From Octopus sinensis (lineage: Eukaryota): a stretch of DNA of 64,000 nt. Location: contig NC_043010.1 of assembly GCF_006345805.1 (NCBI RefSeq), positions 58,528,001-58,592,000 of the forward strand, in the 5' to 3' direction. Position numbers: made by a program. Positions 2,155-5,100 of this stretch are shown here, piece by piece (positions within the stretch are counted from its first letter, which is position 1; every line of letters starts with the position of its first letter).

Positions 2155-5100
2155 TTCACTTTCCTTCTCTCTGGCTGGATAACCTTGTACTCCCTCTACT
2201 GTAAGACACCTGTTTCTGTGTCTACCTCACTATAATCTTTTATCATCTGATATAAGATCACCTCCTCCAATGTAAGATCACCTCTCTTCTCAAAGAATTT
2301 TTTGTCTTGCAAGTACTTGGTGACCCTGTCAGTGCAGGTGCCCCTTAAAAGCTCGCAGTCCACATTGTAAAGTAGTTGGTGTTCAGAAGGGCATCCAACT
2401 GTAAAAACCTTGCCAAAACTGGCCTCAACTGCTCTTGAGCCATGTAAAAATAATTAAGTCCATTCTGCTGAGTTGTTGCTGTTAGAAAGGGCATCCAGCT
2501 GTAAAAGTCAGGCCAAAACAGTTACAGAAGTCTGGTGCAGGGTTCTGCTTGGCCAGCTCCTTCAAATTGTTGCAACCGTGCCAGAAAAGAAGGCAGACGT
2601 TAAACAATGACGATGATATTGAAGATGATGTTCATACAATCACCCGAGCAAACACATACACATACAAATATATATATAGAAACACAAACAGACAGAAAGA
2701 TAGATATATAGACAGAGATAGGTAGATAGATAGACTATATATAGTGTAACTTACCAATATTGTATTGGGTGGACTCTTCTCCAGGGTACCCACGTTTGAC
2801 CAATCAATCTGGGACTCATACTGCGGGTAGAAATCTTCCTTACATTCCACAAATGGCATGTTTCTATTATTCATCTCAGAAGAGTACCTCACTGGGGTAC
2901 CAGGAATACTGCTGCTCTGACACGGTAGAGGTTGATCAATTCTGTTACATATAGCTGACCTATTAACACCTTTCCTAGTGTTCTTGGCAGAGCGAGACTG
3001 ACCACTGCTACATTTCACAATACACAGTGTGATCGACACTACAATCACCACAGCTACTATTACAGCTGCTACTACAAGGATAATCAATAATGGTACGTCC
3101 AGTGTTCTGTTCTTCTCTAAGTGGACAGTCGGCATCGGTGCTGATGTCTTGTTAGTGACCCTTAATGACAAAGACACAGTAGTTGTGGCTGACAACACTG
3201 GGCTACCGGAATCCTTGACCACAAGCACCAGTTCGTATGAGCCAGCATCGTTGAGATGAGGTGCACGCGAGAAAGACATTTGACCAGTTAAAGAGTTGAG
3301 TGTAAACAAGCGTTTATTGTTACCGTCAAGTATTCCATATTTGAGGAACGCATTTAAATGACTGTCTCTGTCAGACGCTCTAATCACAGTGATGGCATTG
3401 GTACTTTGCGGGTGGTAGTGGACATTGATATGGAAAGGGTCAGTTGTAGGGTAGACGAAATACGGATTATTGTCGTTTCTGTCTAAAACCTCAACAACAA
3501 CATTCGCTGTGTTATTCAACGACGGTTTACCATTGTCTTTGACAAAAACCTCAAACTTATACATGTCTTCTTCTTCTCTGTCCAATGGTATGTTGCTGGT
3601 AATAAAACCATAATCACTCACCTGGAACGGTATGTTATTTCTGTCTTTACTCAACAGTGAGAACGTCAGTTGACCAGCACTTGCCAGGTCTGGGTCAGTG
3701 GCATTGATAAAACCTATAGGAAAGTTTGCTTTACCATTCTCATAGGTGAGGAAGTGGAATGTATCTTTGGTAAATTGCGGTTGCACATCGTTCACATCCA
3801 TTACTTGGATTGAGATCTTTCTCTCCGTCTTTAAAGCAGGGCTTCCGTTGTCTTCACAGACAATTCTCATGTTAAAATGGTCTAATGTTTCTCTGTCAAG
3901 TGGTTTCTTCAGAATAATCTTGTATTCCTTTGATCCTAAATGTGAGAGGACAACTATATCATGTTCTAATTTACAACTCACTTCTCCATTTGCTCCAACA
4001 TCGTTGTCCACCACATTCACATAAGCTAGATAACTGCCCACTTTAGTCCCTTCGTAAATAGCTGCAGTGCCCTTCTTCATTTCAGATGCAAAATCTATCC
4101 CAATTTTGGGAGGATGGTTCTTTTCATTGAGAATATTCACCCGTACAATGGCAAAGGAATTTAAAGAAGGATTCCCTCCATCTTTCGCCTCCACATACAT
4201 CTTGAGAATATTCTTTGTTTGTGATGTTAATGGTTTTTCTACAAATAATTCCCCAGTTTGTTGGTTCAGTCTGAAATACTGTCTTGTGCGTTCTGGTGTT
4301 TTTGAACTCATAAAATAAGACACTTTACCATTATTGCCAGAATCTGGGTCTTTTGCAGACAATGTCAAAATGGGGTTGTTGTTAGGATGTGTATTTTTGA
4401 TGGAAATATTGTAAATATGTTTTGAAAAAACTGGTGAGTTATCATTCACATCAATTATTTTTATATGAACATGTAAGATTCCTTCTTTTGAAGGTTGCCC
4501 TCCATCATTAGCTATCACTTCTAAATTGTAACTATCTTGTATTTCTCTGTCTAGTTTGTCTCCAAGAACAATTCCTATCTTTGCCCCTCCAGTGATAGTT
4601 TTCCTCACAGACAATATAAATGGATCACTAAATTGTTTCTTCAATTTGTATGTAATTTCTGAATTTTCCATTCCAATATCTTTGTCAAAGGCATCTGGAA
4701 TTAATCTTTCGGCTCCTTCTCCATCATCTTCATCATATGTAATATTCAGTTGTGTCTGAGGAAACTCAGGGCTGTGATCGTTAATGTCTTCTATAATTAC
4801 TTTAATTTTAATAACTTTCAAAAATGTCTTCCTTCTACGTACAGCAACTTTGATGTATCTAACACAATCTGATTCATATGTACACAGTTTCTCAGCATCC
4901 AATGTTTGAGCCGTGTACAATTTACCATCTTGTGTGACGTTGAATAAATGTGAATTCTCTGTCCATTGCTGTTGCATTTGGTTGTATGTGATGAAGTTAT
5001 TTCCCACAAGAGAGTCCGTTTCTTCCATCTGTGTGTCAGCAGCAATATCCCCAACAAAAGTAAAGGGACTGCTTTCTTCTTCTACATGATAGCTCAGATC

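Follow-up and report, generated by a model that had tools for sequence, protein, structure and literature searches.

The window analysed here is a stretch of 64,000 nucleotides (nt) of Octopus sinensis DNA (assembly GCF_006345805.1, contig NC_043010.1, positions 58,528,001 to 58,592,000), which contains no N and carries six head-to-tail copies (A-F) of one predicted protocadherin gene, all on the minus strand and spaced 10.5-14 kb apart. Each gene consists of one large exon of 2.46 kb, whose uneven divergence among the copies is the subject of this report, and its own terminal exon of 7 codons. The 808 codons of the large exon encode a putative signal peptide, six extracellular cadherin repeats (EC1-EC6), a putative transmembrane segment (TM) and a tail of ~90 amino acids (aa). 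The exon runs from the acceptor TTTCAG/ATAAAACC... to the donor TTG/GTAAGT, with the ATG 33 nt inside the acceptor, and in these octopus genes it is preceded by an intron.

Database searches, for which the translation of the large exon without the terminal exon served as the query, revealed a Pfam match to PF08266 (Cadherin_2; E = 3.6e-10, residues 31-116), indicating an N-terminal protocadherin-type EC1, and a match to PF00028 (Cadherin; E = 6.5e-68) in five stretches, which together with Cadherin_2 make six repeats. DxNDxxPxF linkers are located at residues 131, 243, 461 and 566; a hydrophobic stretch of 25 residues (697-721, the putative TM) and a hydrophobic N-terminus were seen in the sequence by eye only. 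Judged from the cadherin repeats, the genes of the array are protocadherins of the cadherin superfamily. The terminal exon encodes LPTRIKK and a stop codon, and annotated relatives end in ...PPNTIL-LPTRIKK. The possibility of a shared constant exon was examined and dismissed, as every one of the six units carries its own terminal exon with an acceptor 1.0-2.6 kb downstream of the large exon; the units are therefore complete genes with two coding exons rather than variable exons that splice to a common constant one. The features of the window are as follows.

2755-5211, minus strand: copy A large exon
2755-3789, minus strand: copy A homogenised 3' tract, codons 464-808 (EC5, EC6, TM and the cytoplasmic part encoded by the large exon); 12/1035 segregating sites in A-E; donor TTG/GTAAGT
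3790-4980, minus strand: copy A variable tract, codons 67-463 (late EC1, EC2, EC3, EC4); 127/1191 segregating sites
4981-5211, minus strand: copy A 5' low-diversity tract, 33 nt of 5' untranslated region plus codons 1-66 (signal peptide and first 40 EC1 residues); ATG at 5178; 4/198 coding sites segregate
620-643, minus strand: copy A terminal coding exon (LPTRIKK, stop); acceptor CAG/TTACCA, across a 2111-nt intron
13394-15850, minus strand: copy B large exon, 808 codons, open; ATG at 15817; Pfam Cadherin_2 plus five Cadherin stretches, E = 6.5e-68
10735-10758, minus strand: copy B terminal exon
25235-27689, minus strand: copy C large exon; 1-nt deletions in codons 137 and 370
22962-22985, minus strand: copy C terminal exon
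37868-40324, minus strand: copy D large exon, open; ATG at 40291
36860-36883, minus strand: copy D terminal exon
36038-39021, minus strand: ~3.0-kb segment of unit D near-identical to unit E; 9 mismatches and 24 gap columns in 3000 alignment columns
51994-54443, minus strand: copy E large exon; reading frame broken by five deletions in codons 39-97, the other 717 codons open
50971-50994, minus strand: copy E terminal exon, identical to that of D over 324 nt
62531-64000, minus strand: copy F large exon, truncated by the end of the window so that only the 3' part from about codon 319 is present
60815-60838, minus strand: copy F terminal exon

Divergence among the copies was distributed very unevenly along the large exon. 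Segregating sites were counted over the five full copies A-E, and each end of the exon was compared with the variable part by Fisher tests. In codons 464-808, 12/1035 nt segregate, as against 127/1191 nt in codons 67-463 (p = 2e-23), and the same contrast was found at third positions (8/345 versus 73/395, p = 1e-13) and at fourfold-degenerate sites (7/146 versus 23/122, p = 3.5e-4). Pairwise Nei-Gojobori synonymous divergence (dS) was 0.13-0.18 in codons 67-463 (0.08 for the B-F pair) and 0-0.027 in codons 464-808, that is, 5- to >30-fold lower in the latter. It was highest in EC2 and 0 in EC5, where the five copies show zero differences over 315 nt. A preliminary description of this DNA, centred on positions 2755-3800 (copy A codons 460-808, i.e. 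the last five EC4 codons, EC5, EC6, TM and the tail), had described these domains as almost identical even at synonymous sites, with about ten substitutions between A and B in ~1 kb; our counts agree closely, since A and B differ at 8 of the 1035 nt of codons 464-808 (5 synonymous and 3 nonsynonymous differences). A dS that is uniform along the exon and similar to intron divergence, which had been named as the outcome speaking for simply very young copies, was not observed. The overall identity of the large exons is 96-99%, and private substitutions persist in the constant part, for instance in A (five) and F (one).

The 5' end of the exon is also nearly invariant, as had been described for the signal peptide and the first ~60 codons: only 4/198 nt segregate in codons 1-66 (p = 1.8e-5), three of them private to E, and third positions segregate at 2/65 (p = 9e-4). 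The 66 nt immediately 5' of the ATG contain eight variable sites. Variation had been thought to be confined to late EC1 through early EC4; its start in late EC1 (codon 68) was confirmed, but it runs through EC4 to codon 463. The last informative site is at codon 396, and the singletons between codons 396 and 463 are mostly private to A. Among 18 O. sinensis and O. vulgaris copies or models, 33 of the 112 amino-acid positions of EC2 are variable, and EC5 has one real variable position, the five more that appear there being the misaligned tail of one truncated model.

Outside the exon, spacers and introns are collinear between units and only 24-50% alignable, with Kimura two-parameter distances (K80) of 0.09-0.14 overall and many blocks at 0.15-0.35; the full range over alignable introns and spacers is 0.07-0.35. 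In the introns of B-E, the first 165-255 nt have a K80 of 0.07-0.08 and the other blocks 0.1-0.27. The introns of A and F do not align to the other introns; by BLAST, the copy A intron (644-2754) has no homology to other introns, and the spacer downstream of copy A (1-2748) has none to other spacers. The terminal exons keep their peptide and differ at 5/24 nt. Since the dS of the variable part (0.13-0.18) matches intron and spacer divergence, the copies must be old and their constant parts reset. The view that the neighbouring introns are strongly diverged or non-homologous was correct for most pairs, but not for D and E, whose introns are near-identical.

The D/E similarity extends over ~3.0 kb (36038-39021 versus about 50150-53150), from the end of EC4 to the tail, through the whole intron and the terminal exon, to ~0.8 kb beyond. 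On its 5' side, mismatches rise to 5-26 per 200 columns, and in EC1-EC4 the two copies differ at 62/125 polymorphic sites. From this it follows that exchange also takes place over long tracts, or by unequal crossing-over whose junction lies in the identical sequence. The downstream flanks group as B+C and D+E, with A and F unique, and this grouping differs from that of the variable part of the exon.

Some further features were noted in the non-coding DNA. A patch of 353 bp in the introns of B and C (11697-12049 versus 24067-24419) is 98.3% identical amid 10-20% divergence, and the copy A intron contains a tandem repeat (1151-1745; 232-bp unit, 2.6 copies, 82% matches). A conserved block of 1.5-2 kb lies between units (8482-10395, 20758-22578, 33951-35884, 47900-49355 and 57060-58667). 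It contains microsatellites and no open reading frame (ORF) longer than 110 aa, the ORFs present being of low complexity; the block may be regulatory, may hold the 5' non-coding exon of the next gene, or may also be converted.

The variable part is mosaic in ancestry, with more mixing of paralogues than mutation alone can explain. It contains 65 informative sites with 10 bipartitions, of which 1337/2080 site pairs fail the four-gamete test, giving a minimum number of recombination events (Rm) of at least 17 exchanges; neighbouring sites were more compatible than in any permutation (a test like the pairwise homoplasy index, 0/10000). Copies A and D are identical over 30 consecutive polymorphic sites (p < 2e-4) and B and E over 15 (p = 2e-4). 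Across the 18 copies, nine short blocks with 2-11 alleles each occur in different combinations. Between putative orthologues of O. sinensis and O. vulgaris, 15 of the 24 amino-acid differences reuse states found in other paralogues (expected 6.4%, binomial p = 1e-12), a figure that mutational hot spots could inflate.

Comparison with related genes of O. vulgaris and Argonauta hians revealed two different histories within one exon. Gene types 2 and 3, located just outside the window (O. sinensis fused model P0134; O. vulgaris P0129), have a signal peptide and EC1 quite different from those of type 1 and the same EC4-tail. Between types 1 and 2, the signal peptide plus EC1 are only 46.6% identical within O. 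sinensis, 47.4% within O. vulgaris and 48.5% within Argonauta (P0002 and P0003, respectively), whereas EC5/EC6/TM-tail are 100/99.2/100%, 100/98.3/96.6% and 99.1/99.2/100% identical in the same order. Between Octopus and Argonauta, type 1 genes share 83.7% of the signal peptide plus EC1 and 90.5/82.5/87.3% of EC5/EC6/TM-tail, and these C-terminal domains are 82-91% identical between orthologous types across species. The maximum-likelihood tree of the N part contained a cross-species type-1 clade (support 100/99) and a cross-species type-2 clade (93/92), and a clade of Argonauta types 1 and 2 was rejected by the approximately unbiased (AU) test (p = 4e-5). The tree of the C part contained precisely that Argonauta clade (100/99) and an all-Octopus clade (97/98), and here a cross-species type-2 clade was rejected (AU p = 1e-61). 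As read from these proteins, the signal peptide and EC1 group by gene type across species and the EC4-tail groups by species, and related gene types with different N-termini predate the Octopus/Argonauta split, for which a fossil lower bound of about 29 million years is used as a calibration in one study (PMC12682272).

The same pattern was seen elsewhere in the family. In an unrelated second subfamily, the identity of O. vulgaris P0037 to P0045 rises from 73.2% over EC1-EC3 to 99.7% over EC5-tail, and for the N part both have a closer partner in Argonauta (AU p = 7e-100 and 2e-6). Among 119 labelled relatives (one unlabelled record was dropped), 24 have their nearest neighbour in another species for the N part and in their own species for the C part, and six show the reverse; the neighbour lies in another species for both parts in 55 and in the same species for both in 34. 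Only seven of the 24 asymmetric relatives exceed 4 percentage points in both parts. In several paralogue pairs, sliding identities switched at a discrete point near residue 326-376; in one O. bimaculoides pair this point lay near residue 650. The EC6 substitution H589R, present in five O. vulgaris copies (P0001, the first part of P0121, P0123, P0131 and P0132) and in none of the six window copies, is a variant that has partly spread through the array of one species.

Argonauta P0002 (type 1) and P0005, a distant paralogue that is 42-72% identical to it through EC1-EC5, share an exact stretch of 62 residues in EC6; the longest shared stretch was 22-36 residues in the three other comparisons (one between Octopus species, two between Octopus and Argonauta). 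The long stretch hints at patch conversion across subfamilies.

The copies of the window could be matched to public models. The A, B and D translations are exact substrings of the fused O. sinensis model P0134, and the tail of copy F is P0130 (O. sinensis XP_036364983.1). The O. vulgaris counterparts of A, C and D are P0128 (9/808 differences), P0124 (7-8/808) and P0127 (3/332), respectively. In the public models P0134 (4660 aa) and P0121 (1571 aa), several adjacent copies are joined end to end as a single protein; the order in P0134 is D, part of C, B, A, a type-3 copy and a type-2 copy. These chains look like the read-through or annotation fusions typical of such arrays.

Five copies are complete, F being truncated by the end of the window, and of these no more than three (A, B and D) have an open reading frame as assembled. 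The five frameshifting deletions of copy E (2, 2, 1, 1 and 1 nt) are accompanied by private substitutions in codons 28-122, its EC5-tail is identical to that of its sibling copies, and its O. vulgaris counterpart, model P0132, starts only at Met51. Copy E has the look of a pseudogene that is damaged at its 5' end while conversion keeps its 3' part fresh. In copy C, neither of the bases removed at codons 137 and 370 is repeated next to itself, and the O. vulgaris orthologue P0124 is intact; the deletions represent either recent inactivation or an assembly error.

G+C content at third codon positions (GC3) rises from 0.27-0.30 in the variable part to 0.44 in the homogenised 3' part, and by domain it ranges from 0.25-0.28 in EC2/EC3 to 0.43-0.48 in EC5/EC6. 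In copy B, 153 of 345 third positions are G or C in the 3' part versus 120 of 397 in the variable part (Fisher p = 7e-5). The raised GC3 supports conversion indirectly. Selection was assessed from windowed Nei-Gojobori counts, site models being unreliable under pervasive recombination. The ratio of nonsynonymous to synonymous proportions (pN/pS) was 0.06-0.26 per domain overall, with 0.18-0.26 in EC1-EC4 and the lowest values in EC6 (0.12) and TM-tail (0.06). These windowed counts gave no sign of positive selection, as pN/pS never exceeded 0.55 in any 30-codon window; the positive selection that had been considered for EC1-EC4 is unsupported at this resolution, and the exon is on average under purifying selection.

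Our results show that the units of the array are old, that their 3' tract has been homogenised repeatedly and in recent times, that exchange in the variable tract is patchy, and that the constant parts are specific to the species. We consider it very probable that this array of complete genes evolves in concert by non-reciprocal exchange between its large exons. Gene conversion of the kind known in vertebrates, which the preliminary description had proposed, is favoured by the dS contrast, by cross-species trees that follow gene type in the N part and species in the C part, and by the mosaic. The last ~1.0-1.2 kb of the exon (the end of EC4, EC5, EC6, TM and the tail) is overwritten repeatedly between copies, which leaves this part near-identical within a species and different between species. 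Exchange inside EC1-EC4 also occurs, in short patches, and reshuffles a limited set of variants without erasing them. The exon ends would be the usual limit of a tract, since indels, microsatellites and unrelated sequence have left the flanking introns without homology. The 3' tract, being long and identical, may in turn be a preferred substrate for further conversion and for unequal crossing-over, as in the 3-kb tract of D and E, and the diversity of EC1-EC4 may be kept by selection for distinct binding specificities, by mismatch-limited conversion, or by both.

Other explanations of the profile were weighed against this one. That the copies are simply very young duplicates with no time to diverge would fit the overall exon identity of 96-99% and the 3 kb shared by D and E at 99.7% or more; however, the EC1-EC4 dS is similar to the spacer K80, the introns of A and F cannot be aligned to the others, and counterparts of A, C, D and F can be recognised in O. 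vulgaris. The split between types 1 and 2 moreover predates that of Octopus and Argonauta, yet the two types are 99-100% identical in EC5-tail within each of O. sinensis and Argonauta (96.6-100% in O. vulgaris). With a non-uniform dS and incongruent N and C trees also contradicting it, we regard youth of the copies as extremely improbable. Strong purifying selection on the 3' half, including synonymous sites that might serve A-to-I editing structures or splicing signals, would need no copying at all, and both the low pN/pS of EC6 and TM-tail and a reported enrichment of editing in octopus protocadherins (bioRxiv 10.1101/714394) point in its direction. Such constraint would keep orthologues alike, but the type 1 EC5/EC6/TM-tail of Octopus and Argonauta are only 90.5/82.5/87.3% identical while paralogues within O. 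sinensis and within Argonauta reach 99-100%; C-part trees group by species in both subfamilies, and H589R occurs in five O. vulgaris copies and in none of the six in the window. Selection of this kind acting by itself is very unlikely to have produced the profile.

The profile might also come from the assembly, if reads of near-identical copies were mixed and the 3' consensus equalised during polishing; polishing is difficult for 2.5-kb tandem repeats that are 96-99% identical, and the small indels of C and E could be errors. The same profile was nevertheless found in the protein sets of three assemblies (O. sinensis, O. vulgaris and Argonauta hians), the private constant-part substitutions of A and F survive, and the tract boundaries coincide with real changes in neighbour relationships, all of which makes an artefact highly improbable. 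A closer competitor to short-tract conversion is homogenisation due chiefly to unequal crossing-over, or to segmental re-duplication, with breakpoints that fall within the exon. The D/E tract, continuous from EC4 to 0.8 kb past the terminal exon between copies that differ in EC1-EC4, is what this process would leave, and the downstream flank groups do not follow the variable part. For most pairs, however, identity collapses ~0-250 nt past the donor while the exon tract is identical, and 17 or more partner changes within 1.2 kb would need many duplications if made between 12-kb units. Unequal crossing-over is unlikely to be the main process; it probably contributes, and it does not exclude conversion.

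Several points weigh against concerted evolution by conversion as we have drawn it. The D/E tract means that homogenisation is not strictly confined to the exon, and unequal crossing-over fits that tract equally well. Divergence is only 7-8% over the first 165-255 nt of the B-E introns, which is below the dS of the variable part, and the conserved non-coding block of 1.5-2 kb is also similar between units (K80 0.02-0.09), so that low divergence is not exclusive to the exon; spacer K80 itself was obtained from BLAST-alignable blocks only. In the 5' tract there are ~41 synonymous sites, with 1/25 fourfold sites segregating, and signal-peptide constraint and conversion cannot be separated there. 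Raised GC3 could reflect codon or amino-acid usage and not biased conversion. The cross-species comparisons are comparisons of protein sequences, and the groups submitted to the AU test were named after the sequences had been read and were not blind. Any split of the exon into trans and cis functions is an analogy with vertebrate clustered protocadherins.

By that analogy, the variable part would correspond to the EC1-EC4 trans-recognition module and the constant part to the EC5-EC6 cis module together with the membrane and cytoplasmic parts, and conversion would provide the octopus genes with a common constant region in the absence of common constant exons. We tentatively suggest, as a possibility that we would not yet favour, that germline conversion does in octopods the job of the shared constant exons of vertebrates, and that short patches in EC1-EC4 reassort cassettes into new specificities. 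If this were true, a species-specific constant region would be maintained across the cluster on N-terminal recognition domains that are tens of millions of years older, and the array would act as a self-diversifying and self-standardising receptor library to which broken copies such as E serve as cassette donors.

Vertebrate clustered protocadherins give neurons individual surface identities by joining variable recognition domains to a common part for cis interaction and signalling. A similar split produced by concerted evolution in octopods, with a variable EC1-EC4 and a uniform EC5-tail, makes the proposed functional convergence concrete, and it leads to a prediction of the domains that carry specificity and of those that serve common interactions. 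Trees of full-length cephalopod protocadherins mix two histories, and species-specific clades in them may overstate lineage-specific duplication. The array is also a locus at which interlocus conversion could conveniently be measured in a mollusc.

The pattern is known from vertebrates, and in cephalopods conversion has been suspected before: homogenisation by gene conversion was suggested from species-specific clades in one genome paper (PMC9068888), and 'possibly ... gene conversions' is the wording of another (PMC6339937). The relevant passages of these two papers contain no domain-resolved analysis, dS profile or separate N- and C-terminal trees, which their supplements may hold. Among the papers covered by our literature search, none treated cephalopod protocadherins together with concerted evolution, and those that turned up for gene conversion or homogenisation and were opened contain general remarks only. 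Names of relatives such as 'beta-15-like' and 'gamma-C4-like' are automatic labels. The best Protein Data Bank (PDB) matches by sequence, each over residues ~28-670, were 6vg1 (E = 7e-88), 6vg4 (Protocadherin-10) and 6e6b (Protocadherin gamma-B4), and the octopus proteins resemble these delta-2 and gamma-B ectodomains in having six EC repeats.

The octopus large exon resembles the ~2.4-kb exons of the vertebrate clusters (fugu, zebrafish, mammals and Xenopus), which likewise encode EC1-EC6, a TM and a short tail. For fugu, the 3' ends of variable exons are described as >99% identical, with a discrete boundary in EC4/EC5 and raised GC3 (PMC1852091); vertebrate clustered protocadherins are described as having their lowest dS in EC5/EC6, their highest in EC2/EC3 and raised GC3 in the converted part (PMC1852091, PMC4978886). 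The octopus exon is similar in all these respects, with its boundary at codons 396-463 in EC4, a dS of 0 in EC5 and a maximum in EC2, and a GC3 of 0.44 versus 0.30. In the vertebrate proteins, EC1-EC4 is reported to mediate trans and EC5-EC6 cis binding (PMC7811963). The two systems differ in that the octopus genes have no shared constant exons, each possessing its own terminal exon, a situation also described for cephalopods in a passage of PMC9068888. They differ further in that the large exon of the octopus is preceded by an intron and that a short 5' low-diversity tract gives this subfamily a constant-variable-constant profile. Lastly, the octopus expansion belongs to a mollusc; the cephalopod and vertebrate expansions have been described as independent and convergent (PMC9068888, PMC4978886), in agreement with the convergent outcome that the preliminary description had envisaged.

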